Origin: an uncultured Candidatus Saccharibacteria bacterium
GTDB lineage: Bacteria; Patescibacteriota; Minisyncoccia; 2-02-FULL-40-12; GWA2-44-9
Direction: 5' to 3'
Length of the DNA stretch: 58,406 nucleotides
Assembly: GCA_964513645.1 (NCBI GenBank)
Contig: CAZENF010000004.1
Coordinates: 1-58,406 of the forward strand
Shown one piece after another: positions 1-58,406 of the stretch (positions are counted from its first letter, which is position 1; each line of letters starts with the position of its first letter). Position numbers and translations under genes: made by a program. A model generated the notes under the pieces. The model had not been told where the DNA came from, made no database searches, and saw nothing but the letters and a program-made list of their open reading frames with translations.

Positions 1-2899
<2,899 letters not shown>

Positions 2900-20580: not shown

Positions 20581-20656
20581 ATCCCGTACGAAGTAGCCTC
20601 GCCGAGGTCCCCTTAAGGACTCGTGCCAAAGGCACGAGCGAGACTTCGTACGGGAT
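20581..20656. repeat. TIR hairpin element, copy 1 (76 nt)
   Basis: ATCCCGTACGAAGT (20581-20594) and ACTTCGTACGGGAT (20643-20656) form a perfect 14-bp inverted repeat. The interior folds as a CTCGC/GCGAG stem plus two hairpins. Confidence 0.85.
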
Positions 20657-21649: not shown

Positions 21650-22270
21650 TTAACCGGTGAGGCCAGTAACGAGGTGGAATATCCAAAATATAAGCGGGGA
21701 AGCGAAGAACATAAAGACTATCAAAAACACCGGAAATATGAATAAGGTATTTTTATATAAAAAAGTTTTGAAGGAGTCGAACTTGGGAGGCAAAAGAGTC
21801 ATCAACAGCCAGTGCCCATCAAGCGGCGGAACTGGAAACATATTAAATACCGCCAAGGAAAGATTTAAAAGAACTATCCTTGAAAAAAGGTCAACAACAG
21901 AAGCGGAGCCGATAAAGCCTTCGGCAAAACGCAAGGTAAACCCGAAAAGAAGCGCTAAAACGAGATTTGAAGCAGGGCCGGCAAGGGCAACCTTAACAGG
22001 ACCATACTTTCTGTCATCGAGATTGTTAGGATTATAAGGAACCGGTTTGGCATAACCAAAAGCAAAACCTGTGGCCATATAAAGAATGAACGGCAAAATT
22101 ATCGAACCAAAAAGATCCAGGTGTTTTAAGGGATTCAAGCTCAAACGGCCAAGGTCTTTGGCCGTTGTATCACCTAAAGAATTTGCCATTAGGCCGTGAG
22201 AAACCTCGTGTATTGTAACAGAATATAGAATGACTATTATGTAGAAAATAGGTAGTATTAAAGTCTCCAT
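21650..22270 (-). CDS. Site-2 protease family (M50) membrane metalloprotease
   Basis: HEVSHG plus NMFPVPPLDG in a polytopic protein. I place the start at METLIL (ATG 22270). The ORF-track extension to 22423 reads through repeat copy 2. Confidence 0.8.
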   Translation of the reverse strand: METLILPIFYIIVILYSVTIHEVSHGLMANSLGDTTAKDLGRLSLNPLKHLDLFGSIILPFILYMATGFAFGYAKPVPYNPNNLDDRKYGPVKVALAGPASNLVLALLFGFTLRFAEGFIGSASVVDLFSRIVLLNLSLAVFNMFPVPPLDGHWLLMTLLPPKFDSFKTFLYKNTLFIFPVFLIVFMFFASPLIFWIFHLVTGLTG

Positions 22271-22344
22271 CCTGTACGAAGTAGCCTCCGCCGAGGTCTC
22301 TAAAGAGACTCGCGACTTCGTCGCGAGCGAGACTTCGTACGGGA
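22269..22344. repeat. TIR hairpin element, copy 2 (76 nt)
   Basis: Arms are ATCCTGTACGAAGT and ACTTCGTACGGGA. It has the same architecture as copy 1, with compensatory changes in both internal hairpins. Confidence 0.85.
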
Positions 22345-22351
22345 CCAGTAC

Positions 22352-22380
22352 TTGAAATGTTAGCAAGTTTGATGTAGAAT
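22352..22380 (+). promoter_or_regulatory. Promoter candidate TTGAAA-17-TAGAAT toward rpmB
   Basis: 22352-22357 is TTGAAA and 22375-22380 is TAGAAT. A mirror-image candidate, TTTACA-17-TAACAT, sits on the minus strand at 22357-22385. Confidence 0.4.
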
Positions 22381-22432
22381 GTAAAACACAAATTAAATAC
22401 GTATTGACTAACATCGACCCCAAATATTTCTA

Positions 22433-39871: not shown

Positions 39872-41893
39872 TTACTTGACCAGAAATTTTGCGATAAGGA
39901 GAGCGACAATGTTAGCTACCTTGATCATGGGATTGATAGCAGGTCCGGCGGTGTCCTTGTAAGGATCCCCTACCGTGTCTCCTGTCACTGCTGCTTTATG
40001 GGCGTCGGAACCTTTGCCGCCATAATTACCCTCTTCGATATATTTCTTGGCATTGTCCCAAGCCGCACCACCAGAAGTCATCGAAATAGCTACGAATAAT
40101 CCGGTAATTATCACTCCCACCAAAAGTCCGCCCAACGCCTGTGGTCCGAGCAGAAATCCGATAGCTATCGGGAATACGATCGGAATAAGCGCCGGCAGTA
40201 TCATTTCTTTTATCGCAGCCCGGGTAACAATATCAACCGCGTTGCCGTAATCCGGCTTTTCCATGCCCTGCATAATGCCAGGCATTTCTTTGAACTGTCT
40301 CCTGACCTCATCCACAACCGCCGCACCGGTCCGGGCAACCGCTTCCATCGCCATTGAACCGAAAAGATACGGCATCATTCCGCCCACAAACAATCCTATC
40401 AAAACTCGAGGATCCTGAAGTTCAAAAAATAACTGACTACCCAAGCTTGAAAGTTCTTGAATATAAGCGCTAAACAAAACCATCGCCGCAAGTCCGGCTG
40501 AAGCGATAGCGTAACCTTTGGTCACCGCTTTGGTCGTATTACCAACCGCATCCAAAGCATCGGTCACCTCTCTGACAGAGTCAGGCAAGTGTGACATTTC
40601 AGCGATCCCGCCCGCGTTATCAGTTATCGGACCGAAGGCATCGATGGCAACAACAATTCCGGCCAGTGAAAGCATGCTCATCGTCGCTAAAGCAATTCCA
40701 TAAAGACCGATGACATAAAAAGCAAGATAAATACCCAGACAAATGACAACAATCGGCAAAGCAGTGGCCTGCATCGAGACGGCCAAACCGGCAATAATAT
40801 TTGTGCCATGGCCGGTGGTAGAAGCTTTGGCGATAGTCTGGACCGGACGGAATTTTTTAGAAGTATAAAAATCAGTTATCAGAACCATTAGCGCGGTTAC
40901 ACCGATACCGATCATCATCGCCCAGAAAACATCCATCCGGTTAACTAAGCCGTTAGATAATTTATCGAGGTCACGGATATAGGTGAGCTTGTTTACCATG
41001 TAATAGAAAATGCCGGCCAGAACAACGGCTGTCACGGCCAGACCTTTATAAAGAGCGTTCATTATTCCGCCCATAATACCCTCGCCCAGACGAACAAACA
41101 AAGAACCGATTATCGAAGCGACCACGGCCGAAGCGCCGATTATCAAAGGCAAAATGGTATAGCCCGGTTCGGAAGGAATAAGTAAACTGCCGAGCAGCAT
41201 AACAGAAACAGCAGAAACAACATAAGTTTCAAAAAGATCGGCCGCCATACCCGCATCATCACCAACTTCATCCCCAACCAAATCAGCAATGACTGCGGGA
41301 TTTCTCGGATCATCTTCAGGAATTCCGGCTTCAATCTTACCAACAAGATCCGCTCCGACATCGGCACCCTTGGTGAAAATTCCACCGCCCAAACGGGCAA
41401 AAACAGAAATAAGAGAAGAACCAAAACCCAAACCAATGAGGGCTTTGACATCTTTGGTTACCCAGTAGAAGAATGTGACCGAGATGAGGGCGAGACCGAC
41501 GACGAAGAAACCTGTCACCGCGCCGCCTTTATAAGCCAGGCCAAAAGCTTCAGCGAGACCTTTTTTAGCTTCCTCGGCAACTCGGACGTTCGCCCGAACC
41601 GCAACCATCATTCCGACATAACCGGCTGCAGCTGAAGCGATCGCACCCAATAAAAATCCAATGGCAATGGTTTTGCCAAGCCCGACAAACAATATTGCCG
41701 CAACCACAATACCAACGGCAAAAACGGTCGTGTTCTGACGTTTAAGATATGCTTCGGCGCCTTCCTGTATCGCCTTCTGTATCGACTGCATTTTTTCATC
41801 GCCGGTCGATTTATTTAATATCTGCCAGATCAGGAAAGCTCCGTAGGCAAGTGATGCCACGCCCGCTCCGATCGGCAACCAGAGAATATTCAT
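39872..41893 (-). CDS. hppA: Membrane-bound proton/sodium-translocating pyrophosphatase
   Basis: [20 protein letters not shown] and [19 protein letters not shown] motifs. Start placed at MNILW (ATG 41893). The ORF-track start at 41908 lies inside repeat copy 3. Confidence 0.93.
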
Positions 41894-42010
41894 CCCGTAC
41901 GAACTCATATGCTACGCATATTATGGTCAAACGTTTGACAATAATATAACCAGCGATGAGCTAAATTAATATTATTTTTGCAAACCCGTCAGGGTGAGTT
42001 CGTACGGGAT
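41892..42010. repeat. TIR hairpin element, copy 3 (119 nt)
   Basis: Arms are ATCCCGTACGAACT and AGTTCGTACGGGAT. The interior contains GGTCAAACGTTTGACA. Confidence 0.8.
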
Positions 42011-42151
42011 TCACCCCATTCGAACCACATCAGCTCACAGGCAGCTTCCTTTCATCAGATCTGCTAATTAGATTGGTAACTTAAAAACAACAAAATAAAG
42101 GATACTATAATTATCCCGGGGATTCAACTGTTAAGCCCTGTGGGGTCTTTG

Positions 42152-43225
42152 TTAATCTTTGTCTTCTGAATGTGGACCCTCGACTAAATGCGTGTCTATT
42201 TCTAGAGATTGCCCCGTAATTTTAAATACGTCTTTATCTACCTTTTTAAACTCTTTGGCTGCATTATTGTAAAAATTTACAGTTGTACCAAGGTGTCCTC
42301 CTAGTTTTTTAAAATAATCATCATAACTTTGGAGGTGTTTACCTAAGGATTCTACATTTTTTCGTATTTCTTTTGCAGACTCTTCAATTTGCAATGCTCG
42401 CAAGCCCTGAAGTACGGTTTGCAAATATGCCAGAAAGGAGGTTGGTGAAACTATTATTACATGTTTTTTAAATGCATAATCGACAAGATTCTCCTTAGCG
42501 GCTCCTGTTTGAGTTGTCAATAAATCATAATAAATTGCTTCGTGCGGAATAAACATGAAGGCGAAATCCATAGTCCCCTCGTCAGTTTTTACATACTTTG
42601 ATGTTTCATCGATTCTCTTTTTGAGATCTTCTCTGAATACTTTTTCAAGACGTTCCCTCTCCAACGGATCAGTTTCATCACTTGCTCGATTATAATTTTC
42701 GAGAGAATACTTTGAATCTATAGGAATAATCTTGTCTTTAACAAATACAACCGCATCAACAATAGTTCCATCTTTGAAAGAATACTGCATCTGATAGTTT
42801 TCCGGCGGAAGAACGTTGTCTAGAATAGTTTTCAAATAGTATTCGCCGAGAATACCTCTCCGCTTGGGGTTCTCAAGCATTTTTTGAAATCCTTGTATCT
42901 GGTTTGCAAAACCAGACATCTGTTTTCCTGCTTCTTCAACCCGTGTCACCTTTTCTGTAATGTTGGTTAATTCCCTAATAAATTGATCGCCGAGCTTTTT
43001 AGATTCCGAGAGTTGGTTGCGAATGGAATCAGTAGAAACTCGGTTTGCTTCACTAAGCTTTAAATCTAATACCTTTGCCATATCAGACAGCCTCTGATCA
43101 AACAGCAGTATCGATTGATCGGGTTCTTGTTTGGGCTTTGGTTTTAATTGAATCCAAATAATCAAAAAAATACCCGCTAAAACTAGGATTCCAAATATAG
43201 AAATTAAAATTATCGGCAATTCCAT
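42152..43225 (-). CDS. rmuC: DNA recombination protein RmuC
   Basis: 357 aa with an N-terminal TM segment, a coiled-coil and a RmuC-like C-terminal region. Confidence 0.8.
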   Translation of the reverse strand: MELPIILISIFGILVLAGIFLIIWIQLKPKPKQEPDQSILLFDQRLSDMAKVLDLKLSEANRVSTDSIRNQLSESKKLGDQFIRELTNITEKVTRVEEAGKQMSGFANQIQGFQKMLENPKRRGILGEYYLKTILDNVLPPENYQMQYSFKDGTIVDAVVFVKDKIIPIDSKYSLENYNRASDETDPLERERLEKVFREDLKKRIDETSKYVKTDEGTMDFAFMFIPHEAIYYDLLTTQTGAAKENLVDYAFKKHVIIVSPTSFLAYLQTVLQGLRALQIEESAKEIRKNVESLGKHLQSYDDYFKKLGGHLGTTVNFYNNAAKEFKKVDKDVFKITGQSLEIDTHLVEGPHSEDKD

Positions 43226-43227
43226 AA

Positions 43228-43467
43228 CTATTTTTTATTATTTTCGGAGTTTAAATATTCCGAAACAAGCTGAGATAGTTTTTCGTGATGTTCCTTCTGG
43301 CTTTTAATTGTTGTAGCCATTTCATCTAAACGCTTATGTAGTGCCAAGTAATCATTGTTACCATTCTGCATATGCCGGCGGGATTTAAGCATCAGATAAA
43401 TATTGATGCCGAGCATGCTCAAAACCGCCAAACTAACCAATGATATTAGAACATAAAAAGGATTCAT
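43228..43467 (-). CDS. Small membrane protein (79 aa)
   Basis: One N-terminal TM helix. It lies 2 nt upstream of rmuC. Confidence 0.6.
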   Translation of the reverse strand: MNPFYVLISLVSLAVLSMLGINIYLMLKSRRHMQNGNNDYLALHKRLDEMATTIKSQKEHHEKLSQLVSEYLNSENNKK

Positions 43468-43577
43468 CCCGTACGAAGTAGCCCTTGCAGGGTCCGAAGG
43501 TCAAATGATTGACATTCATATCCGGGCAAGAACCCCATTATTATCCCGACTGAAGTTTTTACTACTTCGTACGGGAT
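43466..43577. repeat. TIR hairpin element, copy 4 (112 nt)
   Basis: Arms are ATCCCGTACGAAGT and ACTTCGTACGGGAT. There is an extra internal TIR-like ATCCCGACTGAAGT at 43543-43556, and the interior contains GGTCAAATGATTGACA. Confidence 0.85.
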
Positions 43578-43594
43578 TTACTTCCATTAGAGTA

Positions 43595-43623
43595 AATCTA
43601 TCATTAAAAAAACATGTTTTCAA
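43595..43623 (-). promoter_or_regulatory. Promoter candidate TTGAAA-17-TAGATT just upstream of copy 4
   Basis: rc 43618-43623 is TTGAAA and rc 43595-43600 is TAGATT. Confidence 0.45.
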
Positions 43624-43626
43624 TTA

Positions 43627-43648
43627 AAAACGGCTTATGCCGTTTTTT
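43627..43648. terminator. Terminator after the tRNA locus
   Basis: AAAAACGGCTTATGCCGTTTTT. Confidence 0.7.
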
Positions 43649-43654
43649 AATTTG

Positions 43655-43924
43655 TGGACCCTACTGAGCTCGAACCGGTTACCTCCACATTGTCCCGATA
43701 AATCATGATGGGCCGCAAGTGGACCGTAGGAGACTCGAACTCCTGACCTCCTCATTGCAAATGAGGCGCTCTACCAACTGAGCTAACGGCCCATCATGAT
43801 TTATCAAGGATCCTCGACTTCATTACCCTAATTTTAAATTGTAAGTCGGGACAAATGTGGCGCTCCTCGCCCGACTGAACAATGTCAGTCGTTCGGGCGG
43901 GTACCAACTAAGCTAAGAGCCACC
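43655..43924 (-). other. Outer tRNA-Ala-like shell, disrupted or intron-like, enclosing tRNA-Ala
   Basis: rc 43902-43924 corresponds to tRNA positions 1-21. Next is a 36-nt hairpin (43866-43901). Then GAGC-G-CCACA-TTTG (43852-43865) corresponds to positions 22-35. A 159-nt insert follows (43693-43851). Finally CAATGTGGAGGTAACCGGTTCGAGCTCAGTAGGGTCCA (43655-43692) corresponds to positions 36-73. Confidence 0.55.
43720..43792 (-). tRNA. tRNA-Ala (UGC)
   Basis: The rc reads GGGCCGT-TA-GCTC-AGTTGGTA-GAGC-G-CCTCA-TTTGCAA-TGAGG-AGGTC-AGGAG-TTCGAGT-CTCCT-ACGGTCC-A. The G3:U70 pair is present. Confidence 0.9.
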
Positions 43925-57738: not shown

Positions 57739-57974
57739 AAGTTTCTCAACTTTATATAGCTTCCCAGTATTGCCTTTTGACAGAAATTTTTATTCGAGCT
57801 GTCATAGAATTCCGATTTAGCCTTCGGATCAGGCATCAGAATTAATTCCGATATCGACTTCATTTTTTTGAAAGTGTTTAGAGTATAGACGTGAAAAAGT
57901 AGAAAATACTTCTTCCCGTTTTTCGCCTCCACACTTTAAATCCTTTCGTGCATCCAAGAAAAATCTTGAATAGA

Positions 57975-58406
57975 AAGGAGGTGATCCAAGAGCAGCTTCC
58001 GCTACCCTTGCCTTGTTACGACTTAGTTCCTGTCATCGAGCTTACCGTGTCCCTACATATAAAATAGGTCTTCAGGTATTCCCGACTCCCTTAACTTGAC
58101 GGGCAGTGAGTCCAAAATTCGAGAACGTATTCACCGCTGCGTTCTGATCAGCGATTACTAGCAATTCCGGCTTCAAGAAGGCAAGTTGCAGCCTTCTATC
58201 CGAACTGAGGGTGCTTTTGATGGGATTAGCTCCACCTCGCGGTTTGGCAACCCATTGTGACACCCATTGTATCATGTGTGTAGCCCAGGACATCAAAGGG
58301 CCACGCTGACTTGACGTCATCCCCACCTTCCTCCTTCTTACGAAGGCAGTCTCGTCTGACACGTATAACAGACGATAGGGGTTGCGCTCGTTAATCCACT
58401 TAAGGA
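57975..58406 (-). rRNA. rrs: 16S rRNA, 3' ~430 nt; the 5' part runs off the window end
   Basis: The rc ends ...AAGTCGTAACAAGGCAAGGGTAGCGGAAGCTGCTCTTGGATCACCTCCTTT. Also present are CGGTGAATACGTTC and the GGGGATGACGTCAAGTCAGC block. Confidence 0.95.

Follow-up and report, generated by a model that had tools for sequence, protein, structure and literature searches.

Four short elements bounded by terminal inverted repeats (TIRs) lie in the 58,406-nt stretch of DNA analyzed here (the window), and one of them, copy 4, runs from the promoter to the ATG of an operon encoding a small hydrophobic protein (small-TM) and RmuC. The question raised by this locus is whether such an element is a translational or stability control module of the genes that it precedes, or a mobile element whose target or selection is very narrowly constrained, the two possibilities put forward in the first-pass annotation.

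Structure of Copy 4 and Its Surroundings

The coordinates, the sequence, and the promoter-to-ATG span of copy 4 were all reproduced (Table 1). On the sense (−) strand, from 43577 to 43466, the element reads ATCCCGTACGAAGT...ACTTCGTACGGGAT followed by G-AAT, with TIRs of 14–17 nt, and its junction TCGTACGGGATGAAT is identical at hppA (41891–41905), as had been noticed before. The proposed promoter was found again by a consensus scan, which also fits the view that the element makes up the whole 5′ UTR; the candidate (43623–43595) is, however, a 9/12 match only, and 9 such sites occur in the region versus 5.8 expected. The short upstream ORF (uORF) crosses the 5′ TIR in the usual frame of the family (…N-P-V-R-S…), and the TGA of the remnant ORF in copy 4 overlaps the host ATG (ATGA). 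In situ, copy 4 would constitute the operon 5′ UTR, and any regulatory role would be secondary. The 79-aa ORF beside copy 4 had no Pfam match, the relatives of RmuC were at most 68% identical and had a different upstream region without the element, and no exact protein match was on record for the window proteins.

Table 1. Coordinates of the element copies in the window and of the features around copy 4.
Feature	Position	Strand	Remark
Copy 1, 76 nt	20581..20656	-	Same subfamily and orientation as copy 2; rpsG-fusA spacer
Copy 2, 77 nt	22269..22345	-	GC-rich Y-shaped subfamily; on M50 peptidase start codon (ATG 22270-22268)
Copy 3, 119 nt	41892..42010	-	On hppA start codon (ATG 41893-41891); upstream repeat GTGAA
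Relic 3′ TIR-like sequence	42012..42024	-	TTCGAATGGGGTG(AA); adjoins copy 3 upstream
rmuC, second operon gene	42152..43225	-	Pfam RmuC, 4e-53
79-aa small hydrophobic ORF	43228..43467	-	ATG 43467-43465 = A of the TIR plus TG
24-codon remnant ORF in copy 4	43464..43538	-	Nuclease reading frame; MGFLPGYECQSFDLRTLQGLLRTG*
Copy 4, 112-nt non-autonomous (MITE-like) element	43466..43577	-	5′ UTR of small-TM/rmuC operon
3′ TIR of copy 4	43466..43479	-	ACTTCGTACGGGAT; terminal A (43467) = A of host ATG
Internal third TIR-like segment of copy 4	43543..43556	-	ATCCCGACTGAAGT; sense ACUUCAGUCGGGAU
5′ (promoter-proximal) TIR of copy 4	43564..43577	-	ATCCCGTACGAAGT
Upstream half of copy 4 target-site duplication, decayed	43578..43582	-	GTAAA vs ATGAA downstream
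ATG starting 23-codon uORF	43585..43587	-	7 nt past -10 hexamer (leaderless geometry)
Promoter candidate TTGAAA-17-TAGATT	43595..43623	-	Consensus scan; TG precedes -10 hexamer (extended -10)
Terminator-like hairpin	43626..43647	.	Between tRNA-Ala unit and operon, directly upstream of promoter candidate

The TIR 14-mer occurs eight times in the window, in four pairs, against 0.3 occurrences expected by chance; six of the eight cores are perfect and two are off by 1 nt. The ends of copies 2, 3, and 4 coincide with start codons, in agreement with the earlier count of three in four; that of copy 1 does not, lying 43 nt upstream of the fusA ATG. The sites of copies 1 and 2 are empty in a relative (L025) with 83% EF-G identity. 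The relic TIR next to copy 3 suggests an older insertion at the same (hppA) start codon, and the motif TGAA-TCCC|CGGGA at 42115–42126 is a candidate footprint of the element. The best matches among hppA orthologues in metagenomes were 56–66% identical, had different N-termini, and in no case carried the element.

Distribution of the Element Family

A collection scan of one genome per species, in which perfect 11-nt TIR cores were required and lengths extended to about 125 nt, revealed the same TIR pair (TCCCGTACGAA...TTCGTACGGGA) at no fewer than 113 loci, nearly all of them in MAGs labelled Patescibacteria. The counts below refer to 128 elements from these loci (at least 113), for which identity of the 11-nt core was imposed by the scan. 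The short elements measure 62–123 nt; four copies lie in the 58-kb window, and up to at least eight loci came from one MAG. The suspected enrichment at start codons was evident, since the terminal A and the following TG form the ATG of an ORF of at least 60 codons in 104 of the 128 elements (81%) and about 116 end on an ATG of some kind, a fraction that may be inflated because perfect 11-nt cores and a length limit under-sample decayed and intergenic copies.

An exact 4-nt direct repeat (TGAA, TGGA, etc.) flanks 74 of the 104 elements on long ORFs, while the repeat measures 3 nt at 7 other elements and 5 nt at another 3, and the upstream 5-mer is the same as the downstream ATGNN in 71. The duplication follows TNNA and is nearly always the TGNA formed by the start codon and the next two bases. 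An ATG therefore stands on both sides of the element where the upstream copy is kept (85/104), as a consequence of the target duplication, and elements preceded by GTG or TTG are nonetheless followed by ATG, because its A comes from the TIR. ATGGC starts, though frequent among the gene starts of the window, were found only once among the 104 element-bearing genes. The orientation is likewise fixed: similar element pairs had the same sense in 167 cases, versus 20 marginal AT-rich pairs, and at L016 and L046 both members of a divergent gene pair, 2 kb apart, have a copy in the sense orientation. Neither a fixed orientation nor a start-codon occupancy of roughly 90% can follow from a symmetric TIR pair and a TNNA target alone; selection or a further targeting step is required. 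The flanking target-site duplication had been missed in the first-pass annotation.

The genes served by the element are functionally unrelated and some are essential (dnaA, RF1/2, def, topA, and aminoacyl-tRNA synthetases); the proteins of the 104 genes fall into 116 Pfam families, and the element interiors are unrelated between subfamilies. No Rfam match was obtained at the gathering threshold in the window, and nothing credible at E <= 5 between 41700 and 44000. Viral contigs gave one match, which was not on an ATG. At L072, one TIR helix surrounds a whole tRNA-Ser gene in the manner of a processing stem.

Orthologues without the element were found in several comparisons (L048 vs L107, L089 vs L044, L059 and L070 vs the window, and L021 vs L109), and near-identical copies occur inside single genomes (L046, L049, L057, and L067). 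At orthologous filled sites the TIRs stay perfect while the interiors diverge. Common TIRs, a fixed-length duplication, small size, no coding capacity, a multicopy state, and filled and empty sites, by which MITEs are recognized, were all seen in the family.

Two other origins of this pattern were considered; the first found no support and the second was rejected. Targeting of transcription start sites or open complexes is not supported by the frequency of a -10-like hexamer at leaderless distance, 5–9 nt (peak 6–7) before the ATG, which was 39% in element-bearing genes versus 34% in control ORFs, or by the occurrence of elements on internal genes of ribosomal-protein operons (orthologues of rplB, rplC, and rplD). 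An origin of the flanking repeat by reverse transcription or template switching does not agree with the upstream repeat, which matches the target gene and not the donor.

A Full-Length Form Encoding a GIY-YIG Protein

The full-length form of the element, about 278 nt long, has the inverted repeats TCCCGTACGAA(A/G)T ... A(T/C)TTCGTACGGGA and encodes a single 86-aa protein, predicted from its sequence to be a GIY-YIG nuclease of the UPF0213/YhbQ type. At L049, where two 278-nt copies are present, the protein reads ...YTGYTENLRKRL...RLKRFLFRTG*; residues 4–74 match Pfam GIY-YIG (PF01541) at 2.9e-16, and the nearest solved structure is UPF0213 BH0048 (3e-12). Homologues of the nuclease made up 1978 clusters, and in the best 120 of these every named match was from a Patescibacteria lineage, with lengths of 85–114 aa (mostly 86) and identities of 72–92%. 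Most of the 28 homologue sequences read have a C-terminal FRTG. These last codons, F-R-T-G-stop, are the 3′ TIR itself, and because the ORF ends in this way inside the 3′ TIR, its TGA overlaps the rebuilt host ATG (ATGA). The 4-nt overlap with a co-oriented host gene was present in 7/7 independent full-length loci, in which the TIRs and the duplication were also read directly. The 86-aa protein consists of the GIY-YIG domain only, with no separate DNA-binding domain; no DDE or other transposase was seen, and a search of the collected loci for autonomous copies up to 5 kb returned only the 278-nt forms. As judged from the sequences, the nuclease presumably drives the mobility of the element.

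No full-length copy and no GIY-YIG ORF were found within the window, and the link between copy 4 and the nuclease therefore rests on shared termini, which in copy 4 comprise 14–15 nt per end and in other long subfamilies about 25 nt. Because the longer nuclease-coding forms have the same termini, copy 4 is classed as a non-autonomous MITE-like derivative, most probably a gene-less, internally deleted relic of the mobile-element family. We thus favor, with a probability of about 0.78, the reading that copy 4 is a non-autonomous member of a nuclease-coding family that inserts with a 4-bp TNNA duplication on start codons. The mobile-element alternative of the first-pass annotation is in this respect strongly supported by the number of loci, the duplications, the filled and empty sites, the near-identical copies inside single genomes, the start-codon enrichment, and the nuclease-coding form. 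A literature search found no description of the element sequence or of any start-codon-targeting element, and we regard this tiny nuclease-coding family of Patescibacteria, whose insertion at a start codon rebuilds the ATG, as previously undescribed.

RNA Folding and Host Translation Signals

The copy 4 RNA folds with its TIRs closed at −52.2 kcal/mol (z = −4.8), and the internal segment can instead form a local hairpin (−14.2 kcal/mol) with the 5′ TIR, the closed helix being 16 kcal/mol more stable than the open form. The third TIR had been expected to form its hairpin with the right TIR, next to the AUG; the segment and a local hairpin are indeed present, but the hairpin lies at the 5′ end of the transcript, near the transcription start, with about 90 nt between it and the AUG. 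The pair of mutually exclusive foldings predicted for copy 4 proved to be general in the family, as the internal TACGGGA motif is sense-specific (about 30 elements vs 1 antisense) and is a perfect TIR in L101. This internal decoy is absent from about one-third of the short copies, among them the GC-rich subfamily to which copies 1 and 2 belong; in 8 sequences of that subfamily, the inner hairpins show 4 covarying pairs. All elements have just one feature in common, a perfect helix of at least 11–13 bp that ends with its 3′ foot directly at the AUG. A runs are frequent on the sense strand, as in unstructured leaders. G-U wobble asymmetry, used as a test of RNA-level selection, showed no trend, the variant TIRs being too few, and partition-function folding gave an ambiguous asymmetry of TIR sequestration.

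Leaderless starts are widely used in these genomes, and Shine-Dalgarno motifs precede only about 12–15% of genes. Shine-Dalgarno-like motifs were located 0–2 nt from the upstream ATG in 10/15 cases versus 13/70 controls (Fisher p = 5e-4). An ATG-started ORF ending in an ATGA overlap was found in 19 of 68 short copies against 11 expected, and coupling therefore cannot be a general rescue mechanism. Of two further routes to host expression, the first was rejected and the second found no support. An outward promoter within the element would have the fixed TIR (TATTTC-N7) at the right distance from the ATG, but this sequence lacks the -7 T, and nothing resembling a -10 sequence occurs in the GC-rich subfamily. 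For reinitiation at the next AUG past a uORF, uORF stops fall anywhere, sense and antisense strands behave alike, and internal ATGs are commoner on the sense strand (119 vs 66). With dnaA, release factors, ribosomal proteins, and hppA all bearing a strong hairpin at their AUG, initiation must cope with it.

A Model for Insertion on Start Codons

In the mechanism that we propose, insertion would duplicate TGNA, so that the upstream ATG copy would retain the host promoter and initiation signals and the terminal A of the 3′ TIR would form an intact host ATG with the duplicated TG. The element would borrow the expression signals of the host gene and hand the ribosomes on to it. In full-length copies the host gene would probably be translated by termination-reinitiation, and in ORF-less copies such as copy 4 it would be translated despite the hairpin by one of two routes, or possibly by both combined. 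The internal third TIR might capture the 5′ TIR co-transcriptionally, leaving the 3′ TIR and the AUG single-stranded; or short remnant ORFs might be translated into and through the helix, for which copy 4 would offer two, the 23-codon uORF that opens at the transcription-start ATG and the 24-codon ORF ending in ATGA.

How the hairpin is tolerated could also be explained by its removal after transcription, which would make the element phenotypically silent in an intron-like manner, if a double-strand- or sequence-specific RNase, such as RNase III, cut the TIR helix at its foot or close to it to leave a leaderless mRNA starting at the AUG or a few nucleotides before it. We consider this doubtful but worth serious attention, as leaderless starts are widespread and Shine-Dalgarno motifs rare, a perfect helix with its 3′ foot at the AUG is the only universal feature, and the tRNA-Ser gene inside the TIR helix at L072 resembles one within a processing stem. 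Correia elements of Neisseria, whose TIR hairpins in mRNA are cut by RNase III, provide a precedent. The retention of RNase III in CPR bacteria (PMC12641178) speaks for the same idea, as do the non-intron insertions encoding GIY-YIG proteins in CPR rRNA genes, where RNase III-cleaved intervening sequences have been proposed (PMC11270868). However, RNase III normally cuts inside a helix and not at the terminal base pair, so that a message beginning precisely with AUG is not expected; the retained upstream ATG (85/104) and its adjacent Shine-Dalgarno-like motifs would serve no purpose were the 5′ part removed; and the full-length copies are built for stop/start coupling, which requires an intact mRNA. 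It is considerably less probable that ribosomes skip the element, either through transfer of the initiating ribosome, or of fMet-tRNA paired to the upstream AUG, over the closed helix to the identical downstream AUG, in a hop or shunt like that of gene 60, or through looping out of the helix, by which the initiation signals upstream would serve the downstream AUG in the manner of the split T4 gene 38 ribosome-binding site. The identical ATGNN on both sides of the helix (71/104), the helix base as the part best conserved, and a Shine-Dalgarno spacing of 0–2 nt, which is too short for the upstream ATG and would be right for the downstream one with the helix looped out, would suit such skipping, although the Shine-Dalgarno sample is small (15 motifs), about one-fifth of the copies, including copy 4, have lost the ATG on the upstream side of the duplication, the direct contact of helix and AUG, with no nucleotides between them, is sterically awkward for the ribosomal E-site and exit path, and bypass at initiation has no known precedent.

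The element might instead be a host cis-regulatory RNA, a translational or stability switch between alternative folds, two in number, that has spread or been conserved for its benefit to the carrier genes. The conserved, sense-specific alternative pairing with its perfect internal TIR in L101, the compensatory changes in the GC-rich subfamily, the TIRs that remain perfect at orthologous filled sites despite diverging interiors, and the A-run-rich, leader-like sense strand are in keeping with this, and a 5′ hairpin could shield the mRNA from 5′-end-dependent decay. We nevertheless find it improbable, though less so than ribosome skipping, as there is no Rfam match, the subfamily interiors are unrelated, the served genes (116 Pfam families in 104 proteins, among them dnaA, release factors, def, and topA) have no common theme, close orthologues work without the element, the full-length form is a nuclease gene, and target-site duplications and bursts within genomes are traits of transposons; the control-module alternative of the earlier annotation is thus not borne out. 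Finally, three of four might look anecdotal with only four copies in the window, so that the coincidence with start codons could be fortuitous, or an artefact created by repetition of a few palindromes. This can practically be dismissed, given eight TIR 14-mers against 0.3 expected and 104 of 128 independent copies from many genomes ending on the ATG of a long ORF, 74 of those 104 with an exact 4-nt duplication.

Comparison with Known Mobile Elements

The closest likeness to the start-codon family is found in the Correia/NEMIS MITEs of Neisseria, which are also about 60–160 nt long, multicopy, and ORF-less, with identical TIRs, a target-site duplication, and filled and empty alleles, and are transcribed within mRNAs in which the TIRs fold as a long hairpin. 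In contrast to these elements, which duplicate TA, the family duplicates 4 bp (TNNA), lies about 90% on start codons in a single orientation, rebuilds the ATG, has a partner that encodes a GIY-YIG nuclease and not a DDE transposase, and resides in Patescibacteria. Free-standing GIY-YIG homing genes (T4 seg) and intron-encoded I-TevI share with it a selfish, host-oriented GIY-YIG gene that is lodged between host genes and often overlaps neighboring starts or stops, whereas the 86-aa protein is the catalytic domain alone, without a DNA-binding domain, and the family has TIRs, target-site duplications, and ORF-less derivatives. Its presence at more than 100 unrelated genes indicates transposition and not allelic homing, and together with the TIRs and duplications led us to reject a free-standing homing endonuclease acting at one site. 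UPF0213/YhbQ proteins (COG2827; PDB 1zg2, 1ywl) belong to the same fold family as the nuclease (E = 3e-12), with about 90 aa and conserved catalytic-type residues; they are, as far as is known, the products of ordinary single-copy genes of unknown role, which, unlike the element nuclease gene, have no bounding TIRs and no TIR-encoded C-terminus.

IS200/IS605, PATEs, and REP/RAYT resemble the family in that they are minimal mobile units, have a very small nuclease and ends that form hairpins, insert in a specific orientation, and give rise to many ORF-less derivatives, but they use an HUH/Y1 transposase, lack TIRs and duplications, and insert on the 3′ side of a fixed sequence of four or five nucleotides. 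An IS200/IS605-type element or PATE was rejected on account of the TIRs and the variable matched duplications of the family. The bypass elements (T4 gene 60; 'byp' of Magnusiomyces mitochondria) are, like the family, mobile hairpin insertions in expressed sequence with matching flanking codons, and they are tolerated through a translation trick, as the family may be; they interrupt ORFs, however, and depend on a take-off codon with a stop behind it, whereas the family sits at the initiation codon.

Extending the favored reading, it is possible, and we propose it tentatively from the sequences, that the 86-aa GIY-YIG protein itself acts as a transposase, which would be the smallest known, for prokaryotic DNA transposons of a new class that specifically colonizes translation starts and whose TIR hairpin renders the insertion phenotypically silent at the RNA level, being either cut off to give a leaderless AUG or skipped or melted by initiating ribosomes. 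Such an element would be the start-codon counterpart of introns and inteins and might occupy several percent of gene starts, essential ones included, in some Patescibacteria. If our reading is correct, the start codon is a new niche for selfish DNA, in which the host gene is spared by duplication of the ATG, by its rebuilding from the last base of the element, and by the stop/start overlap; the large unexplained family of tiny Patescibacteria 'GIY-YIG nuclease family proteins' would gain a concrete biology, and GIY-YIG might be added to the few enzymes known to mobilize DNA transposons. The hosts that cope with these hairpins are reduced, largely Shine-Dalgarno-less, and often leaderless bacteria, and their initiation mechanism is directly testable. 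The elements also mislead gene callers, which misplace starts at these loci, as with the in-frame alternative hppA start at 41908 inside copy 3, and which call variants of the nuclease with N-terminal (MTPVRN..., MIPYEI...) or C-terminal (...FRTGW...) extensions.

Copy 4 Forms the 5' UTR of the rmuC Operon

The first-pass annotation had placed the fourth copy (c4) of a short element bounded by terminal inverted repeats (TIRs) between a promoter and a start codon, and its sequence and position were confirmed on the sense (-) strand. The window contained eight occurrences of the 14-nt TIR, paired into four copies, where 0.3 were expected, and these copies, c1 to c4, shared one orientation relative to the (-)-strand genes. 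The ATG at the end of c4 is that of a 79-aa hydrophobic ORF, for which a Pfam search gave no match, and the next gene is rmuC (Pfam RmuC, 4e-53). The junction TCGTACGGGATGAAT was the same in c3 and c4, the internal TIR-like motif was present, and the promoter candidate was found as described, with a TG ahead of its -10 hexamer, a 9/12 consensus match and a terminator-like hairpin just upstream.

Features of the window, with strand where assigned
Feature	Position	Strand	Remark
c1	20581-20656	(-)	rpsG-fusA spacer, 43 nt from fusA ATG
c2	22269-22345	(-)	on ATG of M50 peptidase gene
c3	41892-42010	(-)	on hppA ATG
c4	43466-43577	(-)	sense strand ATCCCGTACGAAGT ... ACTTCGTACGGGAT, then G-AAT
Internal TIR-like motif of c4	43543-43556		ATCCCGACTGAAGT
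Retained ORF of c4	43538-43464		24 codons
Promoter candidate	43623-43595		TTGAAA-17-TAGATT
Upstream ATG	43587-43585		7 nt past -10 hexamer
ATG at end of c4	43467-43465		start of 79-aa ORF
79-aa ORF	43228-43467
rmuC	42152-43225
tRNA-Ala	43719-43792
tRNA-like stretch	43644-43712		sense ...GGTTCGAGCTCAGTAGGGTCCA
hppA ORF call	39872-41908		from in-frame ATG 41906-41908 inside c3
M50 peptidase ORF call	21650-22423		from TTG at 22423
TIR-end junction	42115-42126		sense TGAA-TCCC|CGGGA-T
23S rRNA gene	1-2899	(-)
16S rRNA gene	57974-58406	(-)

The upstream half of the target-site duplication of c4 has decayed to GTAAA. From the upstream ATG, 23 codons extend across the 5' TIR in the frame usual for the family (…NPVRS…), and the retained ORF, in the nuclease frame, ends in an ATGA overlap, a feature of only 19/68 short copies (11 expected). 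With the GAAGTA/TACTTC variant (L214), c4 had 14-15 nt in common at each end. c4 is an ORF-less derivative that now serves as the 5' UTR of the small-ORF/rmuC operon. Between tRNA-Ala and the terminator hairpin, a stretch resembling a tRNA 3' half, not called by ARAGORN or Rfam, may be a tRNA remnant.

The Family Occupies Start Codons and Duplicates Its Target

The census, with one genome per species and the pattern TCCCGTACGAA-N(41-101)-TTCGTACRGGA, returned at least 113 matching stretches, almost all from Patescibacteria-labelled MAGs (Nomura-, Yanofsky-, Zambryski- and Wildermuthbacteria, Paceibacterota, Spechtbacterales and Saccharibacteria); the exceptions were L023, labelled Bacillati bacterium ANGP1, and a few labelled "bacterium" alone. 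Among the matches listed plus the window, 128 elements of 62-123 nt were recognized, with length modes at 64, 71, 78-79, 101 and 117-119. The enrichment at start codons anticipated in the first-pass annotation was borne out, as in 104 of these the terminal A of the TIR and the next two bases formed the ATG of an ORF of at least 60 codons, and about a dozen others lay on the ATG of a short or locus-end-cut ORF. The 104 host proteins covered 116 different Pfam families and included DnaA (2), release factors (3), peptide deformylase (2), topoisomerase I, aminoacyl-tRNA synthetases, a hibernation factor (3) and a second H+-PPase; the presence of essential genes shows the element to be compatible with their expression.

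The five bases upstream matched the downstream ATGNN in 71 of the 104 start-codon elements, and the exact direct repeat was 4 nt in 74, 3 nt in 7 and 5 nt in 3. Where the upstream codon was GTG or TTG, the downstream codon was still ATG, indicating that the A belongs to the TIR and that the duplication is a 4-nt TGNN. The duplications fit TNNA (TGAA 61, TGGA 27, then TGAG, TGTA and TGCA), with TTGA, TAAA, TTTA or TCTA at copies off an ATG. ATGGC, a common start, occurred in 1/104 element-bearing genes, indicating a real target preference.

One element ~120 nt ahead of a 16S rRNA gene (L034, 6276-6339) and another ~130 nt past an RNase P RNA gene (L001, 6475-6573) indicated that the family is not confined to protein-gene starts. 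At another locus (L072, 916-1027), a complete tRNA-Ser(CGA) gene is enclosed by the two TIRs, which directly prolong its acceptor stem in the manner of a processing stem; with a 5' fragment of a second Ser-like tRNA just upstream, this may be a tRNA-carrying element inserted into a tRNA gene.

A Full-Length Form Encodes a GIY-YIG Nuclease

Two 278-nt versions, bounded by the same TIRs and flanked by a TGAA duplication, were found in one locus (L049). Their ORF starts right after the 5' TIR, reads MFYTYILKSKKNGRLYTGYTENLRKRL...RLKRFLFRTG* and encodes a GIY-YIG domain (Pfam 2.9e-16), the nearest solved structures being the stand-alone UPF0213 proteins BH0048 and EF2693. The 3' TIR supplies its last codons, TTT CGT ACG GGA, and its stop, TGA, shares bases with the rebuilt host ATG. 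Homologues formed at least 1978 clusters at 90% identity in the protein database; the best 120 were 85-114 aa long (mostly 86) and 72-92% identical, and every named entry among them belonged to a Patescibacteria lineage. The 28 homologue sequences read had thirty invariant columns and mostly a C-terminal FRTG, those running on (FRTGW...) corresponding to TGG duplications. All seven independent full-length loci showed the same layout (upstream ATGNN, 5' TIR, nuclease ORF, 3' TIR, host gene), with 4 nt of overlap between the nuclease gene and a co-oriented host gene; hosts included SDR, rplI, folA downstream of thyA, and histidine phosphatase. At L223, the duplicated host ATG and the nuclease ORF share a reading frame (MTPVRNHLIMFYTY...). 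Long short-form subfamilies have ~25 nt of the full-length 3' end in common (…AAAG-TTTCCTATTTCGTACGGGA). No full-length copy was found in the window.

The Element Is Mobile and Directional

Element interiors fall into subfamilies of unrelated sequence, and orientation to the gene was constant in every one: 167 similar pairs had the same sense, the remainder being 20 marginal AT-rich matches. L016 and L046 each contain a pair of divergent genes, 2 kb apart, with a sense copy on both, indicating that orientation is set by the gene and not by the replichore. Near-identical copies lie at different genes in several single genomes, and orthologous genes were seen both filled and empty, as in L048 (ggTATAATtgaccgtATGGA[element]TGGATATA) and its counterpart L107 (ggTATGATtagtctATGGATATC); further filled/empty pairs were L089/L044, L059/window, L070/window rplB, L021/L109 and L031/L090. 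A relative with 83% EF-G identity (L025) has neither c1 nor c2. These data indicate that the element is mobile and directional.

At L002 (1559-1921), a 101-nt short element lies exactly at the stop/start junction after an older full-length GIY-YIG gene, now devoid of TIRs and ending in ...FLFLRE; this nesting, as at c3, indicates serial insertions at one start codon. Directly upstream of c3, a decayed 3' TIR-like TTCGAATGGGGTG-AA resembles the remains of a previous insertion at that same start codon. For hppA, both the conserved junction and the Pfam alignment speak for a start at the ATG at 41893, and gene callers are likely to misassign starts at such loci. The M50 peptidase frame is open across all of c2, and the protein may be N-terminally extended with element-encoded residues (22270-22423). 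The TIR-end junction, where the first bases of a 5' TIR meet the last of a 3' TIR after TGAA, may have been left by internal deletion or excision of another copy, or may be fortuitous (about 0.4 expected by chance).

Neither the fixed orientation nor the ~90% ATG occupancy follows from a symmetric TIR pair with a TNNA target. Either an additional step may target start codons, or survivorship may be strong, with only insertions that rebuild the ATG in an expressible orientation tolerated; start-codon copies would then be lost only by precise excision, while neutral intergenic copies would decay and be deleted. The census pattern required perfect TIR cores, which makes the two inseparable in this sample. 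Targeting of transcription starts was not supported by comparison of -10 hexamers, nor by the hosts, as operon-internal genes carry elements.

Folding of the Transcript and Translation of the Host Gene

The predicted c4 transcript closes its TIRs in a 17-bp helix (-52.2 kcal/mol, z = -4.8). The first-pass annotation had proposed two alternative folds, and both exist in folding, but the local hairpin (-14.2 kcal/mol) is formed by the internal third TIR with the 5' TIR and thus lies at the 5' end, not beside the AUG. It was predicted for all nascent transcripts of 45 nt or more; energies were -51.3 kcal/mol for full closure and -34.9 kcal/mol for the best fold that leaves the 3' TIR and AUG free. 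The internal third TIR generalizes across the family: TACGGGA-type motifs were in sense in ~30 elements and antisense in 1, and RCGGR showed 66 sense versus 11 antisense. The extreme case of the alternative fold is L101 (1654-1771), where a 118-nt element occupies the start of an HU-like gene; its internal TIR is a perfect copy that gives a perfect hairpin of 36 nt together with the 5' TIR, and its true 3' TIR has a 1-nt insertion.

In the favoured reading, termination-reinitiation would hand ribosomes to the host gene in full-length copies. ORF-less copies would rely on kinetic capture of the 5' TIR, on ribosomes from a retained upstream start melting the helix, or on both. Alternatively, the RNA might be processed at the TIR helix, consistent with genomes rich in leaderless starts and poor in Shine-Dalgarno motifs, and with the retention of RNase III in CPR bacteria (PMC12641178), or the helix might be looped out, consistent with the position of Shine-Dalgarno-like motifs, which, where they exist, abut the upstream ATG in 10/15 cases versus 13/70 in controls (p = 5e-4). 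Across the 113 loci and the window, a -10-like hexamer lay 5-9 nt (peak 6-7) upstream of the ATG in ~1/3 of long ORFs, and Shine-Dalgarno-like motifs preceded only ~12%, so that leaderless, Shine-Dalgarno-independent initiation seems, from sequence, to be the norm in element-bearing genomes.

Relation to Known Systems and Genomic Context

In anatomy the family resembles a MITE with its partner element, and in enzyme type (GIY-YIG) a homing endonuclease. We know of no described element combining start-codon duplication, an ATG rebuilt from the TIR and a stop/start overlap. No Rfam family matched the element, and a full-text literature search gave no description of a start-codon element family. 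Should the 86-aa nuclease turn out to be the transposase, or the hairpin to be removed or skipped at the RNA level, the element would count as categorically new. The nearest reports concern non-intron insertions in CPR rRNA genes that encode GIY-YIG proteins (PMC11270868) and GIY-YIG genes among horizontally transferred Patescibacteria genes (PMC12455944).

The 23S and 16S rRNA genes are about 55 kb apart, with ribosomal-protein operons and the four elements between them, indicating an unlinked rRNA operon; this, together with the best identity of RmuC (at most 68%) to proteins of Candidatus Paceibacterota MAGs, makes the window look patescibacterial. The 16S 3' end retains the anti-Shine-Dalgarno CCUCC, though few genes have a Shine-Dalgarno motif. 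In the loci of the closest RmuC relatives (L194, 2100-2500; L195, 1860-2170; L197, 2100-2450), a GC-rich stretch of 300-400 nt with no called gene precedes rmuC and may be a structured RNA.
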